From: an uncultured Bacteroidales bacterium
Lineage (GTDB): Bacteria; Bacteroidota; Bacteroidia; Bacteroidales; GCA-2748055
DNA length: 64,000 nucleotides
Direction: 5' to 3'
Assembly (NCBI GenBank): GCA_963751705.1
Contig: CAVVVN010000003.1
Span: 855,446-919,445 of the forward strand
Shown here in pieces: positions 9,147 to 55,599 of this stretch (position 1 is the first letter of the stretch; each line of letters begins with the position of its first letter). Under the pieces are notes generated by a model that was not told where the DNA came from, did not search any database, and was given only the letters and a program-made list of their open reading frames with translations. The translations under genes were made by a program, and so were the position numbers.

Positions 9147-10919
9147 ATGGCCGAAAAGGGGCTTTTGCATAGGGTTAATCGTTTTAAGATCAGGTATTTA
9201 TCTGGACACAGGTTTCTCTATGTTCTCGCTGCTGTTGTGGGGCTGGCTGTGGGGCTGGCCGCGGTCGTTATCAAAAACCTGGTTCATTTCATTCATGAAG
9301 CATTGCAGCATGGATTTCAGGGCGATAACAGCAAGTATTACATCTTCTTAATTCCCATTGTGGGAATCACGCTCACCGTACTTTTTATAAAGTACATCAA
9401 CAAGCATCCGGTGGGGCACGGGATTCCCAGTGTTCTCTTCGCCATTTCAAAGAACAACGGCATCATCCGGTCTCACAATCTCTATTCCAGCATTATTACC
9501 AGTGCACTGACTGTCGGGTTTGGCGGATCTGTGGGATTGGAAGGGCCTACAGTGGCTACAGGAGGAGCTGTAGGTTCAAATATTGGCCGGGCCCTTAAAC
9601 TGAATTATAAAGAGGTCACGCTGCTGATTTCCTGTGCCTGTGCCGGGGCCCTTTCGGCCATCTTCAAAGCTCCCATTGCCGGAATTGTCTTCGCCCTGGA
9701 GGTTATTATGCTGGATCTCACCATGTGGGCCGTGATTCCCCTGCTGATTGCTTCGGCCACCGCTGCTCTTACCTCCTATCTTTTTTTGGGTCAGAATGTG
9801 CTCTACTCTTTCCAGCTTACGGATCCCTTTTTAATGGGCGAAATCCACTACTACCTGCTGCTTGGAATTCTTACCGGATTGCTTTCCGTCTATTTTACAA
9901 AGAGTTATATACGAATCTCCGGATTATTTGAGAAAATCAAGAGTCCCTGGAAGAGATTGTTTCTGGGCGGCGGGATCCTCGGTTTGATTATCCTGATCTT
10001 TCCACCCCTCTACGGGGAGGGTTACGACATAGTGAATCTTGAGCTGAGGGGAGAATATTTTCATCTCTTTGAAAACAGTTTTTTTGAAGGGTGGCAACAT
10101 AGTTTTGCGCTCCTTGCGGTCTTTATGCTGCTTATCATCGGTTTAAAGGTGATAGCTACCACCGTCACCTTTTCGGCCGGTGGCATCGGAGGTGTTTTTG
10201 CACCAACCCTCTTTATGGGTGCCAATACGGGCCTGCTCTTCGGACTGGTCCTGAATCAGTTGGGGATTGAGGTATCAGTGAGCAATATGGCGCTGGTTGG
10301 GATGGCCGGAATGATTGCAGGTGTGGTTCATGCTCCGCTGACGGCCATTTTTCTGATCGCTGAAATTACAGGGGGTTATGAACTCTTTTTTCCGCTGATG
10401 CTTGCGGCCACCATCTCCTTTGGCACTACCCGCTATTTTGTAAAGAACTCTGTATATACAGTCCAGCTGGCCAAGCGCGGGGAGTTGATGACCCATCACA
10501 AGGACCGCAACATATTGCTGATGATGAAGGTGTCGACCTTGCTGGAAACCAACTTTAAAACGGTCCGTGAAGAAGATACACTCAGAGACCTGGTGGATGT
10601 GATTACCACCTCCAGCAGGAACATATACCCGGTAGTGGATGAAAAGAACAATATGAAAGGCCTGGTAAAACTGGATGATATCAGGCACATCATGTTCAAC
10701 CAGGAGATGTATGACAATATCCTCGTCCGCGATTTAATGCATACCCCTGAGTGGACCATCGAAAGTACAGATCAGATGGAGGAGGTGGCCAGGCAGTTTT
10801 CTGAAAGTGGCCGCTATAATCTTCCAGTTCTGCAGAACGGGAAATATCTTGGATTTGTCTCCCGGGCCAGGGTTTTCTCCTCCTACCGGGAAATGCTGAA
10901 GCACTTTTCGGAGGAATAG
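9147..10919 (+). CDS. ClC-family chloride channel/antiporter with C-terminal CBS pair
   Basis: 590 aa. Selectivity-filter-like motifs GSVGLEGP and GGIGGVFAP, multiple TM helices, and a CBS-like tail. Confidence 0.9.
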   Translation: MAEKGLLHRVNRFKIRYLSGHRFLYVLAAVVGLAVGLAAVVIKNLVHFIHEALQHGFQGDNSKYYIFLIPIVGITLTVLFIKYINKHPVGHGIPSVLFAISKNNGIIRSHNLYSSIITSALTVGFGGSVGLEGPTVATGGAVGSNIGRALKLNYKEVTLLISCACAGALSAIFKAPIAGIVFALEVIMLDLTMWAVIPLLIASATAALTSYLFLGQNVLYSFQLTDPFLMGEIHYYLLLGILTGLLSVYFTKSYIRISGLFEKIKSPWKRLFLGGGILGLIILIFPPLYGEGYDIVNLELRGEYFHLFENSFFEGWQHSFALLAVFMLLIIGLKVIATTVTFSAGGIGGVFAPTLFMGANTGLLFGLVLNQLGIEVSVSNMALVGMAGMIAGVVHAPLTAIFLIAEITGGYELFFPLMLAATISFGTTRYFVKNSVYTVQLAKRGELMTHHKDRNILLMMKVSTLLETNFKTVREEDTLRDLVDVITTSSRNIYPVVDEKNNMKGLVKLDDIRHIMFNQEMYDNILVRDLMHTPEWTIESTDQMEEVARQFSESGRYNLPVLQNGKYLGFVSRARVFSSYREMLKHFSEE

Positions 10920-11057: not shown

Positions 11058-11065
11058 TATGTTTG
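11058..11065 (+). promoter_or_regulatory. Candidate -7 promoter box (TAnnTTTG) for aprB
   Basis: TATGTTTG lies 24 nt upstream of the aprB ATG at 11090, within a 170-nt non-coding leader. Confidence 0.3.
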
Positions 11066-11089
11066 TGCTGATCACCAAGCAAGCAGACT

Positions 11090-11503
11090 ATGCCGAGTTT
11101 TGTAATAAGCGAGAAGTGCGATGGGTGCAAGGCCCAGGATCGTACCGCCTGCCAGTATATCTGTCCCAATGACCTGATGGTACTGGATAAAGAGACCAAT
11201 AAAGCCTATAACAGGGCCGTGGATATGTGCTGGGAGTGTTACTCCTGTGTGAAAATTTGTCCCACCCAGGCCATTGAGGTCAGGGGCTATGCCGATTTTA
11301 TGCCTCTGGGAGGGGTGGTTCAGCCTCTGAGAAGTTCCGACTCCATCATGTGGGCAGTCAGGTTCCGGAACAAGGTGGTAAAACGCTTCAAGTTTCCCAT
11401 CCGGACCACTGCCGAAGGATCCATTGATCCGGATGCCGGTTTTAGCACCGGAACAGAGGACCTGAAATCACCGGTACTGAGAACTGAACCCGATTCCCTC
11501 TAA
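11090..11503 (+). CDS. aprB: Adenylylsulfate (APS) reductase beta subunit
   Basis: 137 aa starting MPSFVISEKCDGCKAQDRTACQYICPNDLM. The second cluster motif is CWECYSCVKICP, followed by an AprB-type C-terminal tail. Confidence 0.9.
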   Translation: MPSFVISEKCDGCKAQDRTACQYICPNDLMVLDKETNKAYNRAVDMCWECYSCVKICPTQAIEVRGYADFMPLGGVVQPLRSSDSIMWAVRFRNKVVKRFKFPIRTTAEGSIDPDAGFSTGTEDLKSPVLRTEPDSL

Positions 11504-11519
11504 TAAAAATTCCTGAGCA

Positions 11520-13397
11520 ATGAATGCAGATAGAATGGAAACTGTAGTGGTGGAGACCGACCTCCTGATCCTGGGTGGTGGCATGGCGGCCTGTGGGGCA
11601 GCCTATGAAGCCTCCTATTGGGCAAAAAGACATAAACAACGTGTGACCCTGGTGGATAAAGCGGCCATGGAACGCAGCGGAGCTGTTGCTATGGGACTTT
11701 CGGCCATCAATCTTTACCTGGGGGTGAGCAAGGGGAATAATACCGTGGATGAGTATGTTAATTATGTGAAGAATGATTTGATGGGAATTGCCCGGAAGGA
11801 CCTGGTAGCCAATATTGCGCGTCACGTGGACTCCTCCGTTCACCTCTTTGAGAAGTGGGGCCTGCCCATCTGGAAGGATGAGGAGGGCAACTATGTGAAT
11901 GAAGGCAGATGGCAGATCATGATTCATGGGGAATCCTACAAGAATATTGTATCTGAAGCGGCCAAAAGTGCCCTGAAGGAACTTGGAGAGGACGGGACCT
12001 ACTATGAACGCATTTTTATCACAGAACCCCTTATGTTCAATGATCGTTGTGTGGGTGCGGTGGGATTCAGTGTCAGGGACAATCTATTTTATGTGTTCAA
12101 AGCCAAAGCAGTACTGGATGTGATGGGCGGTGCTGTGCATGTTTTCAGGCCCCGCTCGGTGGGTGAGGGACTGGGAAGGTCCTGGTATCCTCCCTTTAAC
12201 AGCGGAGCCAGTACCTATTTCACCCTGAAAGCCGGTGCTGAAATGACTTGCCAGGAGGTTCGCTTTGTCCCGGTCCGGTTTAAGGATGCCTACGGACCCG
12301 TAGGTGCATGGTTCCTGTTATTTAAGGCCAAGGCTACCAATGGCAAAGGGGAAGATTATATGGAGACCCGGGCAGCGGAACTTGAAAACTGGGCCCCTTA
12401 CGGGACCTCCAAGCCCACCCCGGCGAATCTGCGCAATTACCTGATGCTGCTTGAACTGGAAGAGGGGAATGGCCCTATCTATATGCGAACCGATGAAGCC
12501 ATTCAAAAGCTTGTGGCGGAGATCCCGGATGAGAAGGAGGCAAAACGAAAAATGAAGGAATTGGAATCTGAAGCCTGGGAAGACTTTCTGGACATGACCG
12601 TGAGCCAGGCACTGAGCTGGGCCTCTCATAATGTCATGCCCGAACAAACTCCTTCAGAGATATCTGCCTGCGAACCCTACTTCATCAGCTCCCATTCAGG
12701 CGCCTCCGGTGCCTGGGTGAGCGGTCCTAAGGACCTGGCTCCGGACGAACACCACTGGGGATATGATAATATGACCTCTGTGAAAGGGCTCTTTGCTGCC
12801 GGGGATGCATCCGGAGCTTCTTCGCACAAGTTCTCTTCCGGATCATTTACCGAGGGGCGGATTGCAGGCAAAGCCGCCATAGCTTTTTGTTTGGATCATC
12901 CCGAACCCTTTGAGATTGGCGAAGATCAGATTGCCGTATTAAAAGAGAAGGTCCTGCAACCCTTGAAGATCTTCGAAGAACACAGCGGATACACCAACGA
13001 TGAGGATGTCAATCCCCACTATATCAAACCCAGAATGTTTATGTTTCGCCTCCAAAAGCTTATGGATGAATATGCAGGAGGGGCTTCGGTTGGCTTTAAA
13101 ACTTCAGAAGCGCTGCTGACCAAGGGGCTGGAGTATTTGCAGTTTATGAAAGAGGATGCAGAGAAGCTGGCGGCAGGGGATCTGAACGAGCTCATGCGCT
13201 GCTGGGAAAATATTCACAGAATGTGGCAGGCCGAATCTCATATACGCACCGTACTTTTCAGGGAGGAGACACGCTGGCCAGGTTACTATTTCCGTACAGA
13301 TCATCCAAAGATGAAAGAAGACTGGGAAGCCTTTGCCAATTGCCGCTGGGATCCCGAAACGGGCGAATGGGAGATGATTAAACGTGCCATACTTTAA
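11520..13397 (+). CDS. aprA: Adenylylsulfate (APS) reductase alpha subunit (FAD flavoprotein)
   Basis: 625 aa. VETDLLILGGGMAACGAAYEASYWAK...ERSGAVAMGLSAINLYLG closely follows the AprA N-terminal consensus. It lies directly downstream of aprB. Confidence 0.9.
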   Translation: MNADRMETVVVETDLLILGGGMAACGAAYEASYWAKRHKQRVTLVDKAAMERSGAVAMGLSAINLYLGVSKGNNTVDEYVNYVKNDLMGIARKDLVANIARHVDSSVHLFEKWGLPIWKDEEGNYVNEGRWQIMIHGESYKNIVSEAAKSALKELGEDGTYYERIFITEPLMFNDRCVGAVGFSVRDNLFYVFKAKAVLDVMGGAVHVFRPRSVGEGLGRSWYPPFNSGASTYFTLKAGAEMTCQEVRFVPVRFKDAYGPVGAWFLLFKAKATNGKGEDYMETRAAELENWAPYGTSKPTPANLRNYLMLLELEEGNGPIYMRTDEAIQKLVAEIPDEKEAKRKMKELESEAWEDFLDMTVSQALSWASHNVMPEQTPSEISACEPYFISSHSGASGAWVSGPKDLAPDEHHWGYDNMTSVKGLFAAGDASGASSHKFSSGSFTEGRIAGKAAIAFCLDHPEPFEIGEDQIAVLKEKVLQPLKIFEEHSGYTNDEDVNPHYIKPRMFMFRLQKLMDEYAGGASVGFKTSEALLTKGLEYLQFMKEDAEKLAAGDLNELMRCWENIHRMWQAESHIRTVLFREETRWPGYYFRTDHPKMKEDWEAFANCRWDPETGEWEMIKRAIL

Positions 13398-13409
13398 ACG
13401 AAGTTTATC

Positions 13410-14630
13410 TTGGACTTTCCGACACTGATCATAGGGGGAGGGATAAGTGGAATTACTGCAGCAGTTGAGCTTGCCGAGGCAGGAAAGCAGGTAGTATTAA
13501 TAGAAAAAAAGAACTACCTGGGGGGCAACGTCAGCCAGTTTAATAACTACTTTCCCAAACTCTGCCCGCCCAGCTGTGGCCTGGAGATCAATTTCCGCCG
13601 TATACGTTCCAATCCGCGGATCACCTACTATACCGGTGCTACTCTGAAGAGTATCTGCGGAAGCAAGGGAGATTTCACGGTCAACATTGAGCTGAAGCCC
13701 AGGTTGATCAACAACCATTGCACCGCCTGCGGGAAATGTGCGGAAGTGTGCCCGGTGGAGCGGCCCGAAAAACTGGGAAGAAGTCCCGGGGAGAAGGCCG
13801 CATATATCCATCATGGGCTGGCCTTTCCCATGAAATATACCATTGATCCGGAGGTCTGTAGGGGGGAGGAATGCGGGAAATGCCTGGAGGTATGTAATTA
13901 TTCGGCCATCCAGTTGGATGCCTCTTCCGCAGAGGTGAGTATCCAGGCTGGAAAGATTATCATAGCCACCGGATGGATGCTTTATGATGCCTCCAAGATT
14001 GAAAACTACCACTATCAGGAGGAAGCGGATGTGCTTACGAACCAGGAGTTTGAACATATGCTGGCGGCCTGCACCAGGGAGCACCGGGAGCTGACCAGGC
14101 CATCGGATGGGAAAGTGCCAACCCGCATAGCCTTTGTCCAGTGTGCAGGCTCCAGAGATATAAACCACCTTCCTTACTGTTCTGCTGTTTGCTGTTCTGC
14201 GTCGCTGAAACATGCCCTGACTCTGGAGGCTGAGTATCCGGATATGTTTAGTGAAATCTTTTATATCGACATGAGACTTTCAGGCAGGAATGAAAAACTG
14301 CTGACGAAGGCAGAAGCAAAAGAACGAATAACGCTCACCAAGGGAAAGGTGGGTCGAATTATATCTTCAGAAAGCGGCGAAGGGCTAGTCCTGGAGCTTG
14401 AGGACATAGGCCGGGCAAGGAAACGACAGGAAAGCTTTGATCTGGTGGTACTGGCCATGGGATTAATTCCTGCTCCGCTTGCAAGCGGGCTGGAGCTGAA
14501 TGAGTATGGATTCTGTCTGCCTGAACAGCCTTCGGGAATGATTCCTGCTGCCTGCTGTAAACGTCCCATGGATGTTTCATCATCTGTAAAAGACGCCACT
14601 GCCGCGGCATTAAAAGCGATGAAGAAATGA
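13410..14630 (+). CDS. qmoA: Quinone-interacting membrane-bound oxidoreductase subunit A (HdrA-like flavoprotein)
   Basis: TTG start. FAD fold IIGGGISGITAA and two ferredoxin-type motifs (CTACGKCAEVCP; CGKCLEVC). Position after aprA. Confidence 0.85.
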   Translation: MDFPTLIIGGGISGITAAVELAEAGKQVVLIEKKNYLGGNVSQFNNYFPKLCPPSCGLEINFRRIRSNPRITYYTGATLKSICGSKGDFTVNIELKPRLINNHCTACGKCAEVCPVERPEKLGRSPGEKAAYIHHGLAFPMKYTIDPEVCRGEECGKCLEVCNYSAIQLDASSAEVSIQAGKIIIATGWMLYDASKIENYHYQEEADVLTNQEFEHMLAACTREHRELTRPSDGKVPTRIAFVQCAGSRDINHLPYCSAVCCSASLKHALTLEAEYPDMFSEIFYIDMRLSGRNEKLLTKAEAKERITLTKGKVGRIISSESGEGLVLELEDIGRARKRQESFDLVVLAMGLIPAPLASGLELNEYGFCLPEQPSGMIPAACCKRPMDVSSSVKDATAAALKAMKK

Positions 14631-16741
14631 TGGAGGGGGGTAAAAGAAATATGGCTCTGGCGCTATGTACCGGGTGCAGCATCGGAGAAAGCCTGGATGT
14701 GGATAAGCTGTTTGAAACGGCCCTTGAGCACTGCCAGGGGCTAAGCTGCCTGAAGCATCATTCCCTCTGCTCGGAAGCGGGCCTGGAAGAACTGAACAGG
14801 CTGATCCGGGAGAAAGGGATTGACCGTCTGGCCGTGGCAGCCTGTTCACCCAGGGTGAAGAGTGCCGAATTCGGGCTGGATGGGGTACACACCGAACGGA
14901 TCAATCTGCGGGAGCAGGTAGCCTGGGTGATGGAGCCGGGGCAGGAGGATACTCAAATGTGTGCTGAGGACCAGACGCGGATGATTCTGGCCAAGCTGGG
15001 GACCATCAATGAAATCACTCCCTATATTCCGGAAACTGTCTCTTCTGACATCCTGGTTGTGGGGGGCGGGATTGCAGGACTAACTTCTGCACTGGAGGGT
15101 GCCCGGGCAGGGTTCCGGGTTCATCTGGTGGAGCAAACGGGGCGTCTGGGCGGATATGCCGGAAGGCTCTATAAACTCCTGCCTGAGCGTGAAGAGGCCG
15201 CCACCCTGAAAGAGCCCGATATCCATCTGCTGGTGAAAGAACTCGAGGAGCACCCCGGGGTGGAGATTTACCTGGATACAAGGATTCAGGCCATCTCCGG
15301 CGAACCGGGAAATTTTCATGTATCCCTGGATCATTCAAAGGTTCCTGAATTGAAGGCAGGAGCCATTGTCACGGCCACCGGGTGGAAACCTTATAACACG
15401 GAGAAGCTAAGCTACCTGGCTTATGGATCGCCACGGGTTAAAACCCTGGAGGAATTTGAACTCTTTGTGCAGGAGGAACAGATTCCTGACCGCGTCCTCT
15501 TCATCCTGTGTGCCGGATCGAGGGATGAGCAGCATCTGGCTTACTGCTCCTCCTATTGTTGCGGGGCAGCTTTGAAACAGGCTCTTTATGTGAGGGAGCT
15601 TAACCCCGGGGCCGAGGTCTATATTATTTACCGGGATATCCGGACCATGGGTTTTCAGGAGGAATTCTACAAGATGGTTCAGGCGGATGATGCCATCTTT
15701 ATGACCCAGGGAAAAATCGATACTGTCTCTGAGCGGGGAGACGGGATGGAAGTGACTCTTAGCGAATCGTTGCTGGATGAACGGGTGACCATCAGATCCG
15801 ATATGGTCGTGCTGGCAACGGGCATGGTTCCAAATACCACCGCCGATCTGCAGCTTCAATACCGGCTTGGAAAGGGCCTGCCGGAAATTGAATACGATTT
15901 TTCAGACTCCCATTTTATCTGCTTTCCCTATGAAAGCAGGCGGACCGGGATTTATGCGGCGGGCACGGTCAGGGCTCCCATGGATATGGAGATGAGCAGG
16001 GAAGATGGAAGGGGAGCCATGATGAAGGCCATCCAGGTCATTGAATGCGTTAAACGGGGCGAAGCGGTGCATCCGCGGTCAGGGGATCTTACCTGGCCGG
16101 AACTGTATATGGAACGCTGTACCGATTGCAAGCGTTGCACCGAGGAGTGTCCCTTCGGGAGCTATGATGAAACCGAAAAGGGGACTCCCCTGGCCAATCC
16201 GGCACGTTGCCGGAGATGTGGGATATGTGTGGGATCGTGCCCGGAACGGGTGATTGGTTTCGCAGACTTTAATATTAACAGTGTATCGGCCATGATCAAG
16301 GCCGTATCCATGCCCGATGAGTTTGAGGAAAAGCCCAGGATTCTGGTATTTGTCTGTGAAAATGATGCCTACCCGGCACTGGATGCTGCCGGGATCCACC
16401 ACCTTAACTATAGTCCATTTGTGAGGATCATCCCGGTGCGATGTCTGGGCTCCATCAACAAGGTATGGATCTCCGATGCACTTTCGCATGGCTACGATGG
16501 TATCCTGCAGATTGGATGCAAACCCGGCGATGATTACCAGTGCCACTTTATTCATGGCAGTGAACTGACAGAACAGAGGGGGGAGAATCTACAGGAAACC
16601 CTGGAGACCATGATGCTTGAACCAGAGCGGATCCAGACCAAATTCGTGGAGATCACCGAGCATTTTAAGATAGGGGAGATCATTAACGATTACGTGGAGG
16701 AGATCGAGCTGATGGGTCCGAATCCCTTTAAAAGCATGTAG
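14627..16741 (+). CDS. qmoB: Qmo subunit B (HdrA-like with C-terminal MvhD/FlpD-like domain)
   Basis: 704 aa with a 4-nt overlap onto qmoA. Contains VVGGGIAGLTSA, CTDCKRCTEECP and CRRCGICVGSCP, plus a tail (VFVCENDAYPALD...VRCLGS...) typical of the MvhD-like domain. Confidence 0.85.
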   Translation: MMEGGKRNMALALCTGCSIGESLDVDKLFETALEHCQGLSCLKHHSLCSEAGLEELNRLIREKGIDRLAVAACSPRVKSAEFGLDGVHTERINLREQVAWVMEPGQEDTQMCAEDQTRMILAKLGTINEITPYIPETVSSDILVVGGGIAGLTSALEGARAGFRVHLVEQTGRLGGYAGRLYKLLPEREEAATLKEPDIHLLVKELEEHPGVEIYLDTRIQAISGEPGNFHVSLDHSKVPELKAGAIVTATGWKPYNTEKLSYLAYGSPRVKTLEEFELFVQEEQIPDRVLFILCAGSRDEQHLAYCSSYCCGAALKQALYVRELNPGAEVYIIYRDIRTMGFQEEFYKMVQADDAIFMTQGKIDTVSERGDGMEVTLSESLLDERVTIRSDMVVLATGMVPNTTADLQLQYRLGKGLPEIEYDFSDSHFICFPYESRRTGIYAAGTVRAPMDMEMSREDGRGAMMKAIQVIECVKRGEAVHPRSGDLTWPELYMERCTDCKRCTEECPFGSYDETEKGTPLANPARCRRCGICVGSCPERVIGFADFNINSVSAMIKAVSMPDEFEEKPRILVFVCENDAYPALDAAGIHHLNYSPFVRIIPVRCLGSINKVWISDALSHGYDGILQIGCKPGDDYQCHFIHGSELTEQRGENLQETLETMMLEPERIQTKFVEITEHFKIGEIINDYVEEIELMGPNPFKSM

Positions 16742-16761
16742 ATCAAAGCAGTCAACAGAAT

Positions 16762-17862
16762 ATGAAAGAGGCTTCCATCATACAACCGGACCTGGCGTTC
16801 AAGAGGGAGCTCAGCTGTTTGAGCGGTTCCCAGCTGAATCAGTGTATGCAATGCGGGAACTGTTCAGCCGTCTGTTCGCTGGCGCCGGAAGAAAGACCCT
16901 TTCCCCGGAAGGAGATGATCTGGGCTGGTTGGGGCCTGAAAGATAAATTGATCGGAAACGTGGATATATGGCTCTGCTATCAGTGCGGGGACTGCAGTTC
17001 CTCCTGTCCGCGGGATGTGAAACCAGCCGATGTGATTTCGGCCATCCGTCAGCGTAGCTATGTTCACTATGCCCGGCCCCGGTTCCTGGGCAAGCTGGTA
17101 AACGAGCCGCTCTGGCTTCCTGCTGCCATTGCCATTCCTGTGTTGGTGATTTCTCTGATACTTATGCTGGCCGGAACTTTCAGGATTCCCGAAGGGGCGG
17201 TGGATTATTCGGCCTTCTTTCCACACGCTTTGCTGAATGGAACCTTTTCGGGCATCACCCTCTTTTTTTATCTCCTGGCATCCTTTAGTATTGGAAGATT
17301 CTGGAAGGACATGAAACGCCAGACTCCTCCGGGCGATTCAGCCAGGATTAAGCTACCGGTTTTCAAGGTGCTGGGGGAGGTATTCTCCCATGCTTCGTTC
17401 TCCGGCTGTAAAGCCAGGAAGCTGGGAAAGCTTGCCCATATGCTGCTTTTTTTCGGATTTACCCTCTTGATCCTGGTCACCCTCTATGCCATTTTTGCCA
17501 CCCTGAGCCACAACTACCCGCTTCCCTTTAGCAATCCATTCAAAATCATGGGGAATGCAGCTTCACTGATGATTTATACCGGCTTGGGCATCATGGTAGG
17601 GCAGAGGCTGTTTAACCGGAAAGTGTTTGGCAAAAGCGGGTACGCAGATTGGCTCCTGCTTGTGGCCATCGGCCTGCTGACTCTGTCAGGAACTCTTGTG
17701 GAGGCTGCCCGTTTTGGCAACTGGGCCTGGGCCTACCACCTTTACTTTTTCCACCTGGTGGCGGTCTGGTTTGTGATTATGTATCTTCCATTTACCAAGC
17801 TGGGGCATATCGCCTATCGAAGCGCAGCTTTACTCTATGCGCGCTCCATCCATCGAAAGTAG
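16762..17862 (+). CDS. qmoC: Qmo subunit C (HdrC-like Fe-S domain fused to HdrE-like membrane domain)
   Basis: 366 aa. CMQCGNCSAVC and CYQCGDCSSSCP motifs are followed by about 5-6 hydrophobic helices. Confidence 0.85.
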   Translation: MKEASIIQPDLAFKRELSCLSGSQLNQCMQCGNCSAVCSLAPEERPFPRKEMIWAGWGLKDKLIGNVDIWLCYQCGDCSSSCPRDVKPADVISAIRQRSYVHYARPRFLGKLVNEPLWLPAAIAIPVLVISLILMLAGTFRIPEGAVDYSAFFPHALLNGTFSGITLFFYLLASFSIGRFWKDMKRQTPPGDSARIKLPVFKVLGEVFSHASFSGCKARKLGKLAHMLLFFGFTLLILVTLYAIFATLSHNYPLPFSNPFKIMGNAASLMIYTGLGIMVGQRLFNRKVFGKSGYADWLLLVAIGLLTLSGTLVEAARFGNWAWAYHLYFFHLVAVWFVIMYLPFTKLGHIAYRSAALLYARSIHRK

Positions 17863-19524
17863 TTACTTAAAACTATTCAATACAGATCGCACGGAACCAT
17901 GCAGGAGCAGGAGCCTTTTTGATTCTTCCATAGTTAAGCCCAGCTCCTCGCTGATCATTCGGGACCCTCTTTCAACCAGCTTGGCATTGGTCAGCTGCAT
18001 ATCCACCATCTTATTGCCTTTCACCCGTCCCAGCTTGATCATGGTAGAGGTGGTGATCATGTTGAGGATCAGTTTTTGCGCTGTACCCGATTTCATTCGG
18101 GTGCTTCCGGTAACAAATTCCGGACCCACCAGCGCTTCCAGGGGAATATCCACAGCTTCGGCCAGTTTGCTGCGGGGATTGTTGGTAATGCAGGCGGTCA
18201 ACAGCCCATGTTTCTTCCCATCCTCAACGGCTCCAATCACATAGGGCGTTCTTCCTGATGCTGCGATCCCAACCACCACATCATTTTCCCCGGGCTTGAA
18301 TTGAGCCAGGTCACGCCAGGCACCATCCCTGTCATCCTCGGCCGACTCCACCGCTTTCCTGATTGCCTGGTCGCCGCCTGCTATAATGCCTATCACAATA
18401 TCATAGGGAACTCCAAAAGTGGGCGGAATTTCTGAAGCATCCACAATACCCAGCCGGCCACTGGTGCCCGCCCCCACGTAGAAAAGCCGTCCCCCCTTCA
18501 TGAGTCTTGGAACAATGCCATCCACCAGTTTCTCAATTTCAGGGATGATCTTAAACACAGCCTTGTGTACGGTACTGTCCTCCTGGTTGATATTTTCCAA
18601 TAACTTCCTGGTGCTCATTTGATCCAGGTTATCATAGCGGGAGGTGGATTCGGTCAGTGAGACGGAAGCAGACTGCTCCGGGCTATGTACCTCTTTGTGA
18701 TAAGTGATCAGTCCATCAATGGGCGAGGGGATGATCTGGCTGATTTTGATCTGATGCTTCTTCATCACCTCTTCCAGAATCTCTTTAAAGTGGAAGGCTA
18801 CCGATCCTGCGAAACCAATTTCCAGAGTCCTGTATTCGCTGTATTTACTGATGTTTTTCTTAAAAAAATCATCAAAGGCATCGGAGACAAGATCCCGTAT
18901 CTCGGCGTGTTCTATATATTTTGCAGCTATCCGGCTTAAGGACCCCAGGTATCTGCTGGGTTGTGGCTGGTTATATACATTTTCCAGGATCAGGTCCATG
19001 GTGAGTCCCTCTTCCCGGATGATGGCTTCCCTCAGCTGATCGCTCAGGTTTCTCTTATGCAGGGCATTTACCAGCCGCTTTCCAATATCCGCTCCGCCCC
19101 CTTCATCACCCAGAGAGTAGCCCATGGCCGGGACCTTTTCAGAGATCTTACCTTCCTTATATATTCCAGTATTGGAGCCTGTCCCCAGGATGCAGGCAAT
19201 GCCGCTTCTGTCCTGGAACAGAGCACGTGCCACACCCAGGAGATCATCCTGCACCTGGATAGCGGGGTGCACTCCGATCCGTTTTTGAAGCGATCTTCGG
19301 ATAATCTCCTTCCTCTTTTCATTGGTAACACCCGATCCATAGAAGTAGATCTCTGAGATATTTTGTTCATCACTCTCAAAGTCCAGGCTCCATAGCTCCT
19401 CAACAATCTCTTTTTCACTGGAATGGTAAGGATTAATGCCCCGGGTGGACAGGCTACGGATCTTATCTCCGCTTATCAGTCTCCAATCGGTTTTTGTGGA
19501 GCCGCTATCTGCTATCAATATCAT
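17863..19524 (-). CDS. murQ: Fusion protein: BadF/BcrA-type sugar kinase (MurNAc/GlcNAc kinase-like) at the N-terminus, N-acetylmuramic acid 6-phosphate etherase (SIS domain) at the C-terminus
   Basis: The ORF track starts at 19593; the probable start is the ATG at 19524 (MILIADSGSTKTDWRL, a kinase N-terminus). The C-terminal half carries the MurQ signature GRLFYVGAGTSGRLGIVDASEIPPTFG. Confidence 0.8.
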   Translation of the reverse strand: MILIADSGSTKTDWRLISGDKIRSLSTRGINPYHSSEKEIVEELWSLDFESDEQNISEIYFYGSGVTNEKRKEIIRRSLQKRIGVHPAIQVQDDLLGVARALFQDRSGIACILGTGSNTGIYKEGKISEKVPAMGYSLGDEGGGADIGKRLVNALHKRNLSDQLREAIIREEGLTMDLILENVYNQPQPSRYLGSLSRIAAKYIEHAEIRDLVSDAFDDFFKKNISKYSEYRTLEIGFAGSVAFHFKEILEEVMKKHQIKISQIIPSPIDGLITYHKEVHSPEQSASVSLTESTSRYDNLDQMSTRKLLENINQEDSTVHKAVFKIIPEIEKLVDGIVPRLMKGGRLFYVGAGTSGRLGIVDASEIPPTFGVPYDIVIGIIAGGDQAIRKAVESAEDDRDGAWRDLAQFKPGENDVVVGIAASGRTPYVIGAVEDGKKHGLLTACITNNPRSKLAEAVDIPLEALVGPEFVTGSTRMKSGTAQKLILNMITTSTMIKLGRVKGNKMVDMQLTNAKLVERGSRMISEELGLTMEESKRLLLLHGSVRSVLNSFK

Positions 19525-19625
19525 GATATAGTAATATGAATGATGTATGACAAATTTCCAGATTATATTTGTAAATTGCAAAATAAACCTCATCCGGACC
19601 TCTGAAACTCTTCAAAAGATCTAGT

Positions 19626-21140
19626 ATGTTACCTGCTAAAATTCAGCGGCTTATACTTTTTTTCAGCTTTTGTGGATTCTTCATGCAGACGCTCCTGGCC
19701 CAGCCGCCCAAAAGGGAATTCAGAGGCGTATGGGTGGCCACGGTAGCCAACATCGATTGGCCCTCTGAAGCAGGCCTCACCACCCATGAACAGCAGGAAG
19801 AGATCCTGCGCCTTATAGACAGGCACAAGAAAAACGGGATCAATGCTATTATCCTTCAAGTACGGCCCACGGCTGATGCTCTCTATTTTTCTGAACTGGA
19901 ACCCTGGTCGGAATTTCTTACTGGAGAGCAGGGGAAGGCACCCGATCCTTTTTACGATCCGCTGGAGTTTTGGATCCGGGAAGCCCACAGGCAGGGTATG
20001 GAACTGCATGCCTGGTTCAATCCCTACCGGATCAACCTGGATACGGCCGAATCTCTGAGCGAAGCCCATATGATACACCAGCATCCCGAATGGGTATTCT
20101 CCTATGCAGGGAGATCCTATTTTTCGCCGGCCAATCCCGCTGTATGGAACTTTGTCACAGAAGTGGTGGTGGATGTGGTCCGCAGATATGATGTGGATGC
20201 CATCCACTTTGACGATTACTTCTATCCCTACAAAGTTGAAGGACTGGAATTCCCTGACAGCCTGGATTTTGTCACCTGGGGAGGCTTGTATTATCCGGAC
20301 CGTCTGGAAGCCTGGAGAAGGCATAACGTAGACACCATTATTTCCATGCTGGGTGCGGCCATCAAGGCGGAGAAACCATGGGTGAAATTCGGGATCAGTC
20401 CCTTCGGGGTTTGGCGAAACCGCTCTGAGGATGAACGGGGTTCTGAAACTACTGCGGGGACCTCCAATTATGACGGACTCTATGCGGATGTCCTGCACTG
20501 GCAGGAAGAAGGATGGATTGATTACCTGATGCCTCAACTATACTGGCGGGAGGATCATCCCGCGGTAGGCTTCTCCACCCTGGCTTACTGGTGGAACGAT
20601 TTTAGCTTTGGCAGGCACCTGTATGTGGGACTGGCACCCTACCGGCTGGACAGGAAATCTAAACATCCGCAATGGCGAAAGGAGAAGTATCTTCTCAGAC
20701 AGATAGATTTGATCCGGGAATTGGAGGGGCTGGACGGTTTCGGCTATTTCAGCAGCAAACATTTTTTCCGGAAAGAACTGGCAAAACTGAATAAAACCCT
20801 GCAAAAAAAGTATTGTCGCACTCCTGCCCTGGTTCCTGAAATGCCCTGGATCGATGCATCGGCTCCCGGGAAGCCCGGAGGCTTAAGGCAGGAAGGTCAG
20901 ACACTGGTCTGGGAGGGGGCAGAGTTTGCGGATGAGATGGACCGCAGCAGGTTTTTTGGGATATACCGATATAAACCGGGGGAGAATACCCTGATCAAAC
21001 GTGCAGGGAACCTGGTGCAGCTGACTGGCGAATCCCGGTATACTTTTGAGAAAGGAATTCCGGCAGGGATCTACCGCGTATCAGGAATTGACCGGCTCAA
21101 TAACGAGAGTCAGCTGAGCGATCCCCTGGTGGTGGAATAA
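19626..21140 (+). CDS. Secreted glycoside-hydrolase-like family 10 (GHL10/DUF187) protein
   Basis: Signal peptide, then REFRGVWVATVANIDWPS and HAWFNPYR, which are typical of the GHL10 TIM-barrel family. Confidence 0.75.
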   Translation: MLPAKIQRLILFFSFCGFFMQTLLAQPPKREFRGVWVATVANIDWPSEAGLTTHEQQEEILRLIDRHKKNGINAIILQVRPTADALYFSELEPWSEFLTGEQGKAPDPFYDPLEFWIREAHRQGMELHAWFNPYRINLDTAESLSEAHMIHQHPEWVFSYAGRSYFSPANPAVWNFVTEVVVDVVRRYDVDAIHFDDYFYPYKVEGLEFPDSLDFVTWGGLYYPDRLEAWRRHNVDTIISMLGAAIKAEKPWVKFGISPFGVWRNRSEDERGSETTAGTSNYDGLYADVLHWQEEGWIDYLMPQLYWREDHPAVGFSTLAYWWNDFSFGRHLYVGLAPYRLDRKSKHPQWRKEKYLLRQIDLIRELEGLDGFGYFSSKHFFRKELAKLNKTLQKKYCRTPALVPEMPWIDASAPGKPGGLRQEGQTLVWEGAEFADEMDRSRFFGIYRYKPGENTLIKRAGNLVQLTGESRYTFEKGIPAGIYRVSGIDRLNNESQLSDPLVVE

Positions 21141-21162: not shown

Positions 21163-21891
21163 ATGGACGATATTTTCAGGAACATCGGGAATAAACTTAC
21201 TCTAAGCCAGCGTATTGAACGAACGCTTGAGAGTGCCATCAGAGAGAAGAAACTTCCGCTTGGTTCGAAATTGCCCACGGAGCGGGAAATGTGTGAATCC
21301 TTTGGAGTCAGCCGTACTGCATTGAGGGAAGCATTACGACGTTTGAGTGCCCGCGGATTGATCAACATACAGAAAGGAAGCGGGATGCACGTCAGTGAAA
21401 TACACATTGAGGACGCCATTGACACGCTCCATCTTTACTATGATCTGAAATTTGATAAAAACCTGATCTCCCAGATCATCGAGGTCAGGTATGTGTTTGA
21501 ACCGGAAATTGCACGGCTTGCAGCCTTGAACAGAACCCCCGGCGACCTGGAGGCATTGAACAGGAATCTGAGCGAGTTCGAACAGGGTGATCCCGACAAT
21601 ACCCAGCAGGAAGCCGATCTGGATAACCACTTTCACCTGACCATCACCAAGGCCACCCTGAATCCTATTGTGCAGATTAGCATGGAGCCCATCTACTCCC
21701 TGCTCCCCCGAATGAGAAACTATATTTACGGGAATATTGACGGGGAGAAGGCCTTTACCCTGAAAGCGCACCGGGCCCTGGTGGATGCCATCACGATGCA
21801 GGACGGCCTGCGGGCTTATGAGCTTATGAAAGAACACCTGGAACGAACCCGGGAGATCTACCATAGCCATATGAATCCGGAGATTCCCTGA
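21163..21891 (+). CDS. GntR-family transcriptional regulator (FadR/FCD subfamily)
   Basis: 242 aa. N-terminal wHTH (LPTEREMCESFGVSRTALREALRRL) and an FCD-like helical C-terminal domain. Confidence 0.85.
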   Translation: MDDIFRNIGNKLTLSQRIERTLESAIREKKLPLGSKLPTEREMCESFGVSRTALREALRRLSARGLINIQKGSGMHVSEIHIEDAIDTLHLYYDLKFDKNLISQIIEVRYVFEPEIARLAALNRTPGDLEALNRNLSEFEQGDPDNTQQEADLDNHFHLTITKATLNPIVQISMEPIYSLLPRMRNYIYGNIDGEKAFTLKAHRALVDAITMQDGLRAYELMKEHLERTREIYHSHMNPEIP

Positions 21892-22080
21892 GCCCTAAAA
21901 ACATTTTCTTACTTGCCTTGTTATTCTCTACTTAGCGGAAGAGATGAGTAAAAAACTGTGCAGGGAAAGTGACGTTCTGGAAAAAAAGATACAGGATAGA
22001 AAGATGAAGTATCTTTGTAAAAGATGTAATAAACAATCTCCCAAAGAAAAATGGTGTTGCAAACCAAAGAAAATAAAGCG

Positions 22081-22767
22081 ATGATATTGGCCGCCGGACT
22101 TGGTTCCCGGCTGAAACCACTCACCGATCATAAACCCAAGGCCCTGCTGGAGTGGGAGGGAAGGCCTCTGCTGGAACACCTTATCCTGAAGTTGAAGTCG
22201 GCCGGGTTTACTTCCATTGTCATCAATGTTCATCATTATGCCGCTATGATCATGGAGTATGTGAAGCAGCAGAAAAGCTTTGGAATAGAGATCGCGTTTT
22301 CCCATGAAAAGGATGAGTTGCTTGATACCGGTGGCGGAATCTCCTATGCTTCCTGGTTTTTTGGAGATGAGCCTTTCCTGGTATATAATGTGGATATACG
22401 TAGCAATATTGATCTTCGGGCCATGTACGAGGATCATCTGGCCAGTGGAGCAATAGCTACCCTGGCGGTAAAGGAGCGTGTTACCACGCGCAGCCTTTTG
22501 ATGAATGAAGACGCTTACCTGAAAGGGTGGCGCGACAACCGGACCGGGGAGACCATCCTGGCAGGGACAGACGAAGACGGACTTATTCCAATCGCATTCA
22601 GTGCAATTCATATTATGAACCCCGGGATTTTCAAATTCTTTCCCAAAGAAAAACGTTTTCCACTGATGCCATTTTATCTGGAGCTGGCTAAAACAGAACC
22701 GGTCCGTTTGTACCGGCATGATCGTGATACCTGGGTCGATATGGGGAAAATGGAATCCTATACCTGA
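22081..22767 (+). CDS. Sugar-1-phosphate nucleotidyltransferase (MurU-like)
   Basis: The ORF track starts at 22051; the ATG at 22081 gives MILAAGLGSRLKPLTDHKPKALL (NTP-transferase G-loop). About 228 aa, collinear with MurNAc-1-P uridylyltransferases. Confidence 0.75.
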   Translation: MILAAGLGSRLKPLTDHKPKALLEWEGRPLLEHLILKLKSAGFTSIVINVHHYAAMIMEYVKQQKSFGIEIAFSHEKDELLDTGGGISYASWFFGDEPFLVYNVDIRSNIDLRAMYEDHLASGAIATLAVKERVTTRSLLMNEDAYLKGWRDNRTGETILAGTDEDGLIPIAFSAIHIMNPGIFKFFPKEKRFPLMPFYLELAKTEPVRLYRHDRDTWVDMGKMESYT

Positions 22768-22781: not shown

Positions 22782-23501
22782 ATGGAATTAGACGAGAAGT
22801 TAGAGGCGCAAATCGCGCAGTGGAACGAAGAATTAAAGGATAAGAGTCCGGTGGGAGTCATTGGATTCTTTCTGCAGCATTTCGGGGAGCATATCGTACT
22901 CTCCACCAGTCTTGGACTGGAGGATCAGGTTCTGACCGAGATGGTCCTTCGCCAGAAGAAAGACACGGAGGTTTTTACTTTGGACACCGGGAGACTATTT
23001 CCGGAAACCTACGATTTGATTGCCCGGACCAATAAGCACTTTGGGATTCGGATGAAGACCTATTTTCCGGAAGCAGCCAGGGTGGAGCAGATGGTGGCAG
23101 AGAACGGGATTAATCTGTTTTACGATAGTGTGGAGAAGAGAAAATTGTGCTGCTCCATCCGGAAAGTGGCCCAACTGCCCAGGGCTTTCAAAAACAAGGA
23201 AGCCTGGATCTGCGGATTGCGGAAGGACCAGTCGGTCTCCAGGTTCTTTAATAAGCTGGTGGAATGGGATGCGGCCAACGGACTGGTAAAGATCAATCCT
23301 TTGATCAACTGGACCGAAAAGGAGGTATGGGAGTATATTAAAAAGCACAATATCCCTTATAACCTATTGCATGACAGGGGATTTCCCAGTATAGGCTGTG
23401 AGCCCTGTACCCGGGCCATAGAACCTGGAGAGGATATTCGTTCCGGCCGCTGGTGGTGGGAAAATGAGCTGCACAAGGAGTGCGGCCTGCATAAAAAATA
23501 G
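22782..23501 (+). CDS. cysH: Assimilatory APS/PAPS reductase (thioredoxin-dependent; carries Fe-S type Cys motifs)
   Basis: 239 aa with the C-terminal ECGLH motif, plus CC (KLCCSIRK) and CxxC (GCEPCTR) motifs. Confidence 0.9.
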   Translation: MELDEKLEAQIAQWNEELKDKSPVGVIGFFLQHFGEHIVLSTSLGLEDQVLTEMVLRQKKDTEVFTLDTGRLFPETYDLIARTNKHFGIRMKTYFPEAARVEQMVAENGINLFYDSVEKRKLCCSIRKVAQLPRAFKNKEAWICGLRKDQSVSRFFNKLVEWDAANGLVKINPLINWTEKEVWEYIKKHNIPYNLLHDRGFPSIGCEPCTRAIEPGEDIRSGRWWWENELHKECGLHKK

Positions 23502-47915: not shown

Positions 47916-49730
47916 ATGGGCATGACAGTTATTGAAAAGATCCTTGCAGCACACACTAACATGGATCAGGTGCGTCCCGGCGACATCGTGGATGTGGTGA
48001 TAGATGCACGGGTAGCCCGTGATTTTGGAGGCGCAAATGTGGTCAAGCACCTGGAAGATAATGATTTGACCATAGATGATCCTGCTTCAACCTTTTTCAC
48101 CTTTGACTGTAATCCCACGGGATCAGATCAGAAATATGCAGCGAATCAGCATAAGTGCAGACAGTATGCTCAGAAAGCGGGAATCAGGGTCTATGACATT
48201 GATAAGGGTATCGGGACCCATATCCTCATGGAGGAGGGACTATGCTATCCGGGTTCCACAGCGGTTTCAACCGACTCCCATGCCAATATCCTGGGGGCAA
48301 TTGGAGCATTTGGACAGGGGATGGGCGATAAAGATATTGCCGTGGCCTGGCACAAAGGGTCCACCTGGTTCAAGGTGCCGGCAAGCGTTAAAATTATACT
48401 GGAGGGCTCCCTGGATCCCTCTCTTACTGCCAAAGATGTGGTTCTGAACCTCCTGGATAAATTCGGGGCCAGTACCCTGCTGGGCTATGCCATAGAAATG
48501 GAGGGGGAAGCAGCGGAAAAACTAAGCTTGGATCAGCGCATCACCATTGCCTCCATGGCCACGGAGATGGGGGCCATAATCATTCTCTTCCAACCAAATA
48601 CAGAGGTGATCCGCTATTGTGAATCAAGGTCAAGAAGGAAAGTGGAACCCGTGCTGGCTGATGCGGATGCCCATTATGAAGAGGTCTTTCACGTGGATGT
48701 ATCCAGGTTTACTTCCCGGATCTCCCTTCCCGGGAAACCGCATGATACCTCTGAACTTCCCACTGAGAAGGTTTGGATTGATTCGGCCTTTATAGGAAGC
48801 TGTACCAATGGAAGAATGGAAGACATGAGAGCTGCCGCTGCGGTTTTGAAGGGAAGAAGAGTGTCAGAAGGAGTGGTTCTGAAGATTGTTCCTGCCACAG
48901 ACAGGGTCTGGCAGGCCTGCCTGGAAGAGGGATTGCTCGAGATTTTTAAAGAAGCCGGGGCCCTGGTCTCCAATGCAGGATGTGCCGGATGTGCCGCCGG
49001 GCAGGTGGGGCAGAACGGACCAGGCGAGATTACCATAAGTACCGGGAACCGGAACTTTCCCGGGAAACAGGGGCAGGGAGAAGTATACCTGGCTTCGCCC
49101 TCTGTAGTGGCTGCATCCGCCATTGCAGGGTACATTAGCACCTTTGAAGCTCTTCCGGAGCATCCTGAAACAAGGCAATACAAGCCAGGCACGGAAAACC
49201 GGTCCGGAATGAAAAAGGAGAAAAACACTTCCGGCTCCATCCCTCGTCCCAATGAAATTGAAGGACGGGCATGGGTTATCCCCACGGATAATATTGATAC
49301 CGATATGATCTTTCACAACCGGCATCTCTCCATTACCGAAATTGACGAGATGGGTCAGTATACTTTTGGGAACCTGGAGGGATACGAGGACTTTGCGAAA
49401 AAAGTGAAACCGGGCGATATTGTGGTTGCCGGTAAAAACTTCGGATCGGGAAGTTCCAGGCAACAGGCAGTTGACTGTTTTATCTCACTGGGTATTCAGT
49501 GCGTGCTGGCGGAATCATTTGGAGCGATTTACGAAAGAAATGCCATCAACGCTGCTTTCCCCATTGTAAGTTCTGACCGTATTGCATCTCTGGAAATTGA
49601 AGAGGGAGAGAAGATCAGCCTGAATTTCGAAACAGGTGCCATTCGTAATGTAACCAAGAATATCCTGCTTGAGTCAGCTCCATTTTCAGAAGTGCAGATG
49701 GAGATATACCAGAATAACGGACTGTTTTAA
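47916..49730 (+). CDS. Aconitase-superfamily hydro-lyase, fused large and small subunits (LeuC-LeuD/HacA-HacB type), paralog 1
   Basis: 604 aa. Large-subunit part has cluster cysteines (GSCTNGR; AGCAGCAAG). A roughly 40-aa linker leads to the small-subunit part (NIDTDMI...GKNFGSGSSRQQA). Confidence 0.8.
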   Translation: MGMTVIEKILAAHTNMDQVRPGDIVDVVIDARVARDFGGANVVKHLEDNDLTIDDPASTFFTFDCNPTGSDQKYAANQHKCRQYAQKAGIRVYDIDKGIGTHILMEEGLCYPGSTAVSTDSHANILGAIGAFGQGMGDKDIAVAWHKGSTWFKVPASVKIILEGSLDPSLTAKDVVLNLLDKFGASTLLGYAIEMEGEAAEKLSLDQRITIASMATEMGAIIILFQPNTEVIRYCESRSRRKVEPVLADADAHYEEVFHVDVSRFTSRISLPGKPHDTSELPTEKVWIDSAFIGSCTNGRMEDMRAAAAVLKGRRVSEGVVLKIVPATDRVWQACLEEGLLEIFKEAGALVSNAGCAGCAAGQVGQNGPGEITISTGNRNFPGKQGQGEVYLASPSVVAASAIAGYISTFEALPEHPETRQYKPGTENRSGMKKEKNTSGSIPRPNEIEGRAWVIPTDNIDTDMIFHNRHLSITEIDEMGQYTFGNLEGYEDFAKKVKPGDIVVAGKNFGSGSSRQQAVDCFISLGIQCVLAESFGAIYERNAINAAFPIVSSDRIASLEIEEGEKISLNFETGAIRNVTKNILLESAPFSEVQMEIYQNNGLF

Positions 49731-49740
49731 AAAAAAAATT

Positions 49741-52779: not shown

Positions 52780-52789
52780 CATAAAACAG

Positions 52790-54201: not shown

Positions 54202-54222
54202 ACTGCGTAAAATAAATCAAAG

Positions 54223-55224: not shown

Positions 55225-55253
55225 AGATTTATTTTCGCAATAATACTTTAAGT

Positions 55254-55591: not shown

Positions 55592-55599
55592 GTCGAATG

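Follow-up and report, generated by a model that had tools for sequence, protein, structure and literature searches.

Why does the chromosome of a Bacteroidales bacterium carry a complete set of genes for a dissimilatory reductase of adenosine 5'-phosphosulfate (APS), and what could the enzyme be used for? The question is raised by a 64-kb stretch of DNA from an uncultured Bacteroidales bacterium (contig CAVVVN010000003.1; hereafter the window), in which five open reading frames (ORFs), all on the + strand and spanning positions 11090-17862, encode AprB, AprA, QmoA, QmoB and QmoC in this order. A note made earlier from the sequence alone (the original prediction) had named these five genes, had presented them as unusual for the phylum and had hinted at a foreign origin. 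We find that a large clade of uncultured Bacteroidales has long carried the operon in the chromosome and has passed it on vertically, with a fixed site between a ClC gene and a MurQ gene in one sub-lineage; of the gene identities and of this evolutionary reading taken together we are nearly certain. The best overall explanation of the locus, which we regard as somewhat probable, is an intact vertically inherited operon encoding a menaquinone-coupled APS/sulfite oxidoreductase in a host that probably lacks Dsr.

The identity of the five products was assessed with NCBIfam equivalog models and their curated cut-offs, with Pfam domains and with matches to PDB chains. AprB scored 198.9 bits against TIGR02060 (cut-off 135.65) and also matched PF12139 (APS-reductase_C), AprA scored 858.8 bits against TIGR02061 (cut-off 641.75), and QmoC scored 346.6 bits against NF038018 (cut-off 300), with model positions 1-360 of 360 covered. 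QmoA (306.7 bits, model residues 142-558) and QmoB (368.5 bits) matched the HdrA2 model, both under the HdrA cut-off, as expected for Qmo proteins, and no QmoA- or QmoB-specific model was among the matches listed for these two products. The C-terminus of QmoB (residues 572-697) matched PF02662 (MvhD/FlpD) with 132.7 bits and the PDB matches of the protein are HdrA plus MvhD chains, as the earlier description of an HdrA-like protein with a C-terminal MvhD-like domain had it. CxxCxxCxxxC motifs occur once in AprB (at residue 47) and in QmoA (104), and twice in QmoB (498 and 528) and in QmoC (28 and 72); QmoA has in addition a GGGISG motif at residue 9. The hydrophobic segments of QmoC (119-137, 227-245, 298-316 and 322-347) follow its two motifs, in agreement with the membrane domain that had been placed there. 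Public annotation has a gene at coordinates identical to those of qmoA. The intergenic gaps of 16, 12, -4 and 20 nt given beforehand were reproduced exactly in the ORF list, and the order qmoA-qmoB-qmoC right after aprBA is kept in those 22 Bacteroidales loci whose sequence extends as far as qmoC. Together with the alignment and the conserved residues described below, these matches uphold the earlier identity calls for all five genes.

The active sites are also preserved. AprA aligns with Archaeoglobus fulgidus AprA (1JNR) over residues 2-619 with 770 bits, and a check for loss of catalytic residues found all 13 listed positions, the equivalents of Leu70, Asn74, Tyr95, Glu141, Trp234, Arg265, Val273, Gly274, Leu278, Arg317, Asp361, His398 and His446, to be identical to 1JNR; these residues serve in flavin positioning, in sulfate/phosphate contacts and in the adenine clamp (Meyer and Kuever, PMC2211403). 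In AprB, Cys10, 13, 21, 25, 47, 50, 53 and 57 are 100% conserved (n=76 sequences), in keeping with two [4Fe-4S] cysteine sets and with the two ferredoxin-type Cys motifs of the original prediction, and the window protein has Trp48, an electron relay (PMC2211403). Alignments of 56-76 sequences revealed conserved cysteines in QmoA (52, 56, 104-114, 150-162, 245, 257, 261 and 262), 100% conservation of Cys577, 606, 631 and 639 in the MvhD domain of QmoB, and conserved His210, 226, 331 and 349 in QmoC, which may act as haem ligands; the HdrA-type and ferredoxin-type cysteines of QmoB and both CxxCxxCxxxC motifs of QmoC were conserved too. The ratio of nonsynonymous to synonymous divergence (dN/dS) against close relatives was 0.013-0.18 across the five genes and 0.013-0.05 for aprA. 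Each sequence-based membership test applied placed the module in the AprBA and QmoABC families, and judged by its sequence the operon looks functional; it is intact, expressed-looking and under purifying selection.

The rarity implied by the original prediction did not survive a wider search. At least 120 protein clusters matched at 84-100% identity, and to several of them NCBI gives the name adenylyl-sulfate reductase, with metagenome-assembled genomes (MAGs) of Bacteroidales, Bacteroidetes or Bacteroidota as the source. When GTDB species were scanned, each represented by one genome, 32 Bacteroidales/Bacteroidia species proved to have aprA, at 76-92% identity. Where the contig reaches, qmo genes accompany aprBA, with at least qmoA visible in 28 of the 32 Bacteroidales loci. 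The next tier of AprA, at 67-71% identity, is found in Acidobacteriota, Kapabacteria, Ignavibacteria, Gemmatimonadota, Bacillota and others. In a neighbour-joining tree of the 78 full-length AprA among the 80 best loci, with the window and one archaeal reference, AprA of 30 Bacteroidales loci and the window formed one clade (bootstrap 100); the tree omits Chlorobi, Desulfobacterota and proteobacterial sulfur oxidisers, so that the donor and the affiliation to reducers or oxidisers lie outside it.

The chromosomal context points to inheritance with the flanks. The same neighbourhood is common to nine GTDB species genomes (loci L001-L004, L006, L018, L028, L030 and L032), in the order RelA/SpoT, type IX secretion system (T9SS) CHU_C protein, ClC, the aprBA-qmoABC module, and MurQ, GHL10, GntR, MurU and CysH. 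Over these nine species, identity to the window was correlated between AprA and ClC (rho 0.88, p 0.002) and between QmoC and ClC (rho 0.89). Synonymous divergence (dS) from L085 was 0.16-0.31 for the module genes and 0.35 for ClC; from L086 it was 0.57-0.89 for four of the five module genes, 2.08 for qmoC and 0.83 for ClC. When ClC was used as the anchor of an empty-site test in metagenome contigs, the module was found directly downstream of it in 35 contigs (ClC at 75% identity or more), and a further one (L126, ClC 71%), with aprB about 6 kb downstream of ClC, brought the occupied contigs to 36. Two sites were cleanly empty: in L120 (ClC 74%, positions 11773-11813) a 39-nt spacer separates ClC from MurQ-GntR-MurU-CysH, and L123 (9921-10029) has the L030-type arrangement minus the module, with a 107-nt spacer. 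A third, in L121 (5747-6153), retains only two qmoC fragments (residues 37-58 and about 259-374), which we interpret as a deletion scar and therefore as loss. Where ClC was 63% identical or less (30 contigs), none had the module. The simplest reading is that it is ancestral in the sub-lineage and has occasionally been lost; orthologues are common, and the single AprA clade and the agreement of module and flank identities indicate that they are vertically inherited.

These data have to be set against the possibility that the module is a recently acquired island, obtained from a sulfate reducer or a sulfur oxidiser and inserted between ClC and MurQ. Its guanine-plus-cytosine (GC) content is indeed higher (0.520 in the module, 0.474 in the rest of the window and 0.491 in the first 32 kb minus the module), but the excess of 3-4.6 points obtained from a 1-kb profile and a per-gene analysis falls short of the 52-60% against 43-48% that had been counted by hand, and it lies at codon position 2 (GC2 0.424 vs 0.362, p 0.0002), where it reflects amino-acid content, as expected for iron-sulfur (Fe-S) flavoproteins rich in Cys, Gly and Ala. 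GC at codon position 3 (GC3; 0.593 vs 0.541) lies inside the host gene range of 0.42-0.65, and the synonymous-codon log-likelihood under the window background does not set the module apart from other genes (-1.074 vs -1.098, p 0.41); GC was accordingly rejected as a signal of horizontal gene transfer. An island would also account for L120 and L123, relatives that have the synteny of the window without the module, and for the vacant site in the more distant ones; further back in time, apr-qmo must have come to the Bacteroidales clade from other phyla or have been shared with them. On the other hand, the module genes and the neighbouring ClC have diverged to a similar degree at synonymous sites, identity follows the flanks across the nine species, the site is filled down to 71% ClC identity, the remnant in L121 speaks of loss rather than gain, and the closest non-Bacteroidales AprA is only about 70% identical. 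No integrase or transposase domains were found within 10 kb on either side of the module, and a search for flanking repeats gave short chance-level matches only. Mobile-element scars were likewise discarded, given that the junction alignment with the empty site of L120 revealed nothing beyond a hairpin-like CTTAAGCGGG that follows the ClC stop in both; the sole tRNA of the window is at 52.7 kb and so away from the module borders. The signal of a recent transfer is absent and the module is not a recent foreign island, contrary to the earlier hint; this explanation, which we consider very improbable, is already largely refuted as far as a recent event is concerned.

Even less credible, in our view, is the idea that the module is a relic in decay or without function, or that an artefact of assembly or binning joined sulfate-reducer DNA to a Bacteroidales contig. 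The source assembly is a MAG, the host lineage seems to be without the remainder of the canonical pathway and the module has been lost in some relatives, all of which such an explanation would accommodate; five full-length ORFs with their cofactor and active-site residues and low dN/dS argue against decay, and the junctions with Bacteroidota housekeeping genes recur in dozens of independent assemblies, among them contigs of 0.56-0.97 Mb and, in the wider clade, a 4.6-Mb chromosome. The Bacteroidota host named in the original prediction is upheld: the identity of the flanks to contigs of Bacteroidales MAGs is 70-93%, and a neighbouring gene encodes a CHU_C/T9SS protein.

Variants of the operon occur elsewhere. 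A second Bacteroidales set (group B) has another chromosomal context and includes L023 (Zod_Metabat.943, GTDB family UBA10428). In this group small ORFs encoding PF05635 (23S-rRNA-intervening-sequence protein) and PF13366 (PD-(D/E)XK) proteins interrupt the operon (examples in Table 1), at positions between aprB, aprA, qmoA, qmoB and qmoC that vary by genome, and a SiaC-family gene (PF09345) on the opposite strand downstream is conserved in 10 loci. In Kapabacteria and Ignavibacteria-like loci, at about 13-14 kb in each, qmoC follows aprA without qmoAB and sat is located upstream; several of these records bear the title 'Hyphomicrobiales', a doubtful label given their place among Kapabacteria in the AprA tree.

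Among the closest known systems is AprBA-QmoABC of sulfate reducers (QmoABC-AprAB of Desulfovibrio spp.; AprBA structures 1JNR/2FJA of A. fulgidus), which shares with the window all five proteins and their order. The likeness extends to the AprA alignment with its conserved active site, to Trp48 and the eight cysteines of AprB, to a QmoC that passes the equivalog model and to a QmoB with an MvhD domain, whereas the differences concern sat, which is not adjacent here, and the host, a T9SS-bearing Bacteroidales and presumably polymer-degrading heterotroph, whose class is reported to be without DsrAB, DsrC and DsrMKJOP. The sulfite-oxidising Sat-AprBA-QmoABC system of Chlorobaculum tepidum, for which genetic evidence has reportedly been obtained, also combines an AprBA of the sulfate-reducer type with a complete QmoABC including QmoC, belongs to the same GTDB phylum (Bacteroidota, class Chlorobia) and serves as our working model for the direction. 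In Chlorobi, however, the genes are found with sat and the sulfite comes from a reverse-type Dsr in phototrophic sulfur oxidation, while in the present case sat is unlinked, Dsr is not expected and phototrophy is absent; the AprA tree, moreover, was built from other lineages than Chlorobi. Similar in host are the UBA10428 MAGs (PMC9040765) and a Bothnian Sea MAG (10.1101/553131), which are Bacteroidales with aprAB (and qmoABC, and sat) and no dsr, and L023 and the window fall into one AprA clade; they differ by the group B context, with a SiaC-family gene downstream and PF05635/PF13366 ORFs inside the operon, and by AprA about 82-84% and Qmo proteins 54-60% identical to those of the window. 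The assimilatory AprA-like 3'-phosphoadenosine 5'-phosphosulfate (PAPS) reductase of Methanothermococcus thermolithotrophicus (8A8O) belongs to the same fold family, but this type was rejected, because it scored 311 bits as opposed to 770 for 1JNR, the aprA equivalog model was passed, and AprB and Qmo partners are present.

The remaining enzymes of a canonical pathway are not linked to the operon, as the original prediction had observed for sat and dsr, and for mobile-element genes. Scanning 10 kb on each side of aprBA for the Sat motifs RNPxHxxH and GRDHAG located them next to aprBA in 25 non-Bacteroidales loci but in 0 of the 32 Bacteroidales loci, and none was present in the 64-kb window; the Sat proteins of the compared loci are 50-86% identical among themselves. 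No dsrAB, dsrC or dsrMKJOP was detected in the 64-kb window. According to Diao et al. 2023, Bacteroidota dsrAB are confined to Chlorobia and Kapabacteria, and their Table S1 of 950 dsrAB genomes has none from Bacteroidia. Table S2 of the Zodletone study (mBio 2022, PMC9040765) gives sat, aprAB and qmoABC for four of seven UBA10428 Bacteroidales MAGs, with dsrAB, dsrC and dsrKMJOP in none of the four and asr genes in one of them, Zod_Metabat.943, which has two. The apr-less UBA10428 MAGs in the same table also list sat, and the presence of Sat would therefore not settle the direction of the reaction. A preprint on the Bothnian Sea likewise describes 'Apr without Dsr' in Bacteroidales (bioRxiv 10.1101/553131). 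With sat unlinked and Dsr reportedly absent, the module falls outside the canonical sulfate-reduction pathway.

Five kb downstream of the module, 14 nt after a MurU-like gene, there is a second APS reductase gene that had been missed before, so that the window contains two unrelated APS reductases within 12.4 kb. Its product is of the assimilatory, thioredoxin-dependent CysH type (NF002537, 273 bits, cut-off 154; TIGR02055, 256.5 bits, cut-off 235.3), with CC, CEPC (CxxC) and ECGLH motifs, and its top PDB match is the APS reductase of Pseudomonas aeruginosa (2GOY, 193 bits), as compared with about 100 bits for PAPS reductases. The gene is near the module in group A and in L024 and is also kept in module-less relatives, the MurU-CysH pair being beside the site with or without the module in L004, L032, L024, L120, L121 and L123. 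Since an assimilatory APS reductase implies that the cell makes APS, an ATP sulfurylase would have to be encoded elsewhere, and with a separate enzyme of this kind AprBA would not be needed for biosynthetic sulfite.

AprBA reversibly converts APS to sulfite and AMP via a sulfite adduct at N5 of flavin adenine dinucleotide (FAD). Electrons travel in AprBA by way of the two AprB clusters and Trp-B48 (PMC2211403), and QmoABC binds AprBA via QmoA and reaches menaquinone via the haem-b subunit QmoC (Ramos et al. 2012). By analogy, AprBA of the window, with FAD and two [4Fe-4S] clusters, is predicted to interconvert APS and sulfite plus AMP, and QmoABC, with two HdrA-like flavoproteins and a di-haem-b membrane subunit, would couple this two-electron step to the menaquinone pool. 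The reaction may run, for some of the time at least, from sulfite and AMP to APS, with two electrons passed to menaquinone, and an unlinked, putative ATP sulfurylase would then convert APS and pyrophosphate into ATP and sulfate; the sulfite might come from thiosulfate/polysulfide turnover or from organosulfonate breakdown. We slightly favour this sulfite-oxidising direction over sulfate reduction, although it is no better than an even call, in view of the assimilatory APS reductase nearby, of the frequent lack of Asr in such hosts and of the published surveys, which report no DsrAB, DsrC or DsrMKJOP in Bacteroidia. Menaquinol (-75 mV) alone cannot drive APS reduction (-60 mV) against the membrane potential, and for this reaction confurcation with a low-potential donor has been invoked (Ramos et al. 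2012). One Bacteroidales water-column genome has been counted as a sulfite oxidiser 'via reversal of AprAB+QmoABC' (PMC9040765), and sat-aprBA-qmoABC, which is found in sulfur oxidisers, is not diagnostic of direction (Thiel et al.).

Several points nevertheless weigh against sulfite oxidation in a Dsr-less host. Nothing in the sequence shows the direction; Sat, on which ATP formation would depend, is not linked to aprBA in the window or in the compared Bacteroidales loci; and that Dsr is absent and Sat present is taken from published surveys of related MAGs, which are incomplete, one supplementary literature table used here being a possibly incomplete copy. The nearest non-Bacteroidales relatives of AprA (67-71%), in Acidobacteriota, Kapabacteria and Peptococcaceae, belong to lineages regarded as sulfate/sulfite reducers or as carriers of reductive-type Dsr (Diao et al. 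2023), QmoC is typical of sulfate reducers, and the tree in which these neighbours appear leaves AprA of Chlorobi and of proteobacterial sulfur oxidisers outside the comparison. The authors of the Zodletone study, moreover, count Bacteroidota among the lineages capable of sulfate reduction, with one apr-positive MAG carrying asr (PMC9040765). A serious rival, which we regard as possible though the less probable course, is thus reductive use of the operon: APS made by an unlinked Sat or by CysDN might be reduced to sulfite by AprBA-QmoABC, to which menaquinol and a low-potential donor would together supply the electrons (confurcation), and the sulfite might in turn be reduced by a non-Dsr enzyme (AsrABC, or an assimilatory-type or cytochrome sulfite reductase), which would amount to Dsr-independent sulfate/APS respiration or an electron sink in these Bacteroidales. 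Besides the reducer-type tree neighbours, such use would fit the full QmoABC with QmoC, which is the sulfate-reducer arrangement, the gene content of Zod_Metabat.943, and the origin of the relatives, most of which, according to the record titles, belong to MAG sets of sediments, cold seeps, sulfidic springs and the like. It is harder to reconcile with the three of four apr-positive UBA10428 MAGs that list neither asr nor dsr, with the lack of Bacteroidia among the 950 dsrAB genomes, with the ATP cost of sulfate activation and the unfavourable reduction of APS by menaquinol only, and with the supply of biosynthetic sulfite by the assimilatory enzyme. Cytoplasmic Asr is also not known to conserve energy.

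The module itself is a textbook one, and what matters is its host context. aprA is a widely used marker for sulfate reducers and sulfur oxidisers; given a large Bacteroidales clade with reducer-type aprBA-qmoABC that is reportedly Dsr-less, environmental aprA reads and calls of 'sulfate-reduction potential' from sediments can be mis-assigned. It is conceivable, and we propose it tentatively as somewhat short of an even chance, that a widespread sediment Bacteroidales clade usually deemed to consist of polymer-degrading fermenters runs a Dsr-independent dissimilatory sulfur metabolism on AprBA-QmoABC. This would be either anaerobic oxidation of sulfite (or of sulfite derived from thiosulfate or sulfonates) to sulfate, with electrons going to menaquinone and ATP formed via ATP sulfurylase, or a Dsr-free route of sulfate reduction, and in both variants abundant heterotrophs would be unrecognised players in cryptic sulfur cycling. 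Were the operon active, sulfite-level sulfur cycling by heterotrophs, which current models ignore, would have to be considered. For this window the outcome is mostly a correction, in that the module is neither a foreign island nor rare and was already on public record: aprBA-qmoABC of Bacteroidales has entered public annotation and features in no fewer than two papers (10.1101/553131; PMC9040765, Table S2), which tabulate or mention the apr genes without analysing their role, whereas four others that mention both Bacteroidetes and apr (PMC8470020, PMC8674449, PMC6704655 and PMC10504309) do not treat Bacteroidales apr. What remains of interest is the physiology of apr-positive Bacteroidales without Dsr, and the risk that aprA is misread as a marker.

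Position 11058, formerly given as the start of the module, is the first base of a candidate promoter box, TAtgTTTG, and the ATG of aprB is at 11090 (Table 1). The box is the sole TAnnTTTG on the + strand within the 170-nt spacer between ClC and aprB, as the original prediction of a host-type box before aprB had it, but the motif is statistically weak, the whole window having 46 matches when 36 +/- 5 are expected, which is barely enriched. A scan for sigma-70-type promoters and terminators at the operon gave no signal above the shuffle expectation.

Table 1. Features of the operon, of its surroundings in the window and of compared loci (positions refer to the window unless a locus is named).
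Feature	Position	Strand	Remarks
ClC channel with CBS domains	9147-10919	+	upstream flank
Candidate Bacteroidota -7 promoter box TAtgTTTG	11058-11065	+	25 nt upstream of aprB start
aprB, iron-sulfur (beta) subunit of dissimilatory APS reductase	11090-11503	+	137 aa; TIGR02060, PF12139
aprA, FAD-containing catalytic (alpha) subunit of dissimilatory APS reductase	11520-13397	+	625 aa; TIGR02061
qmoA, HdrA-like flavoprotein with ferredoxin insert	13410-14630	+	406 aa; TTG start
qmoB, HdrA-like flavoprotein, two [4Fe-4S] motifs, C-terminal MvhD/FlpD domain	14627-16741	+	704 aa
qmoC, membrane subunit, HdrC-like di-cluster domain followed by haem-b membrane domain	16762-17862	+	366 aa
MurQ etherase fused to N-terminal BadF/GlcNAc-kinase-like domain	17863-19593	-	convergent, abuts qmoC
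GHL10 hydrolase	19626-21140	+	
GntR/NanR-like regulator	21163-21891	+	
MurU-like nucleotidyltransferase	22051-22767	+	
Assimilatory thioredoxin-dependent APS reductase (CysH type)	22782-23501	+	239 aa; outside operon
Aconitase-family protein	47916-49730	+	604 aa
asnA	49669-50775		
Aconitase-family protein	50822-52597	+	591 aa
tRNA-Arg(TCT)	52706-52780		
Lower-GC stretch	53000-61600		GC 0.39-0.47
T9SS-tailed protein	54223-55224		
CarboxypepD_reg fragment	56722-57024		
Curlin-repeat protein	57858-58820	-	
csgG, two overlapping ORFs	59359-59757 and 59744-60169	-	
Group B small inserted ORF	L010 3766-4134		
Group B small inserted ORFs	L031 2285-2641 and 6161-6517		
Group B small inserted ORF	L009 13234-13662		
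Group B small inserted ORF	L005 9555-9923		
Group B small inserted ORF	L015 11945-12304		
Loci with qmoC after aprA and no qmoAB			L034, L035, L044, L046, L053, L055, L057, L077

The flanking genes were recognised as a ClC channel gene and an N-acetylmuramic acid (MurNAc) catabolic gene, as had been stated. The latter belongs to a peptidoglycan-recycling cluster that adjoins the module and comprises the MurQ fusion, the GHL10 hydrolase, the GntR/NanR-like regulator and MurU; related loci have a NamZ or an APH/RapZ_C (AmgK-like) gene instead in this cluster. Across the 32 Bacteroidales loci the neighbouring genes, which encode MscS, sulfotransferase, CNNM, NamZ, FolB, SiaC-family proteins, LytTR regulators and peptidases, gave no pointer to sulfur energy metabolism, and the rest of the window is of housekeeping character (PurA, Fur, RelA, MnmA, UvrD-like, TrmD, PyrG, YidC, RibH, RecF, aconitase-family, AsnA and others).

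Towards the end of the window, asnA lies between two aconitase-family paralogues, both of which combine a large domain with a swivel domain. These genes are followed by the tRNA-Arg(TCT) gene and then by a lower-GC stretch with few long ORFs, among which there are genes for a T9SS-tailed protein and a curlin-repeat protein. In the same part of the window csgG is split into two overlapping ORFs, which could be due to a frameshift or an assembly error, and a lone CarboxypepD_reg fragment suggests a degraded outer-membrane receptor gene.

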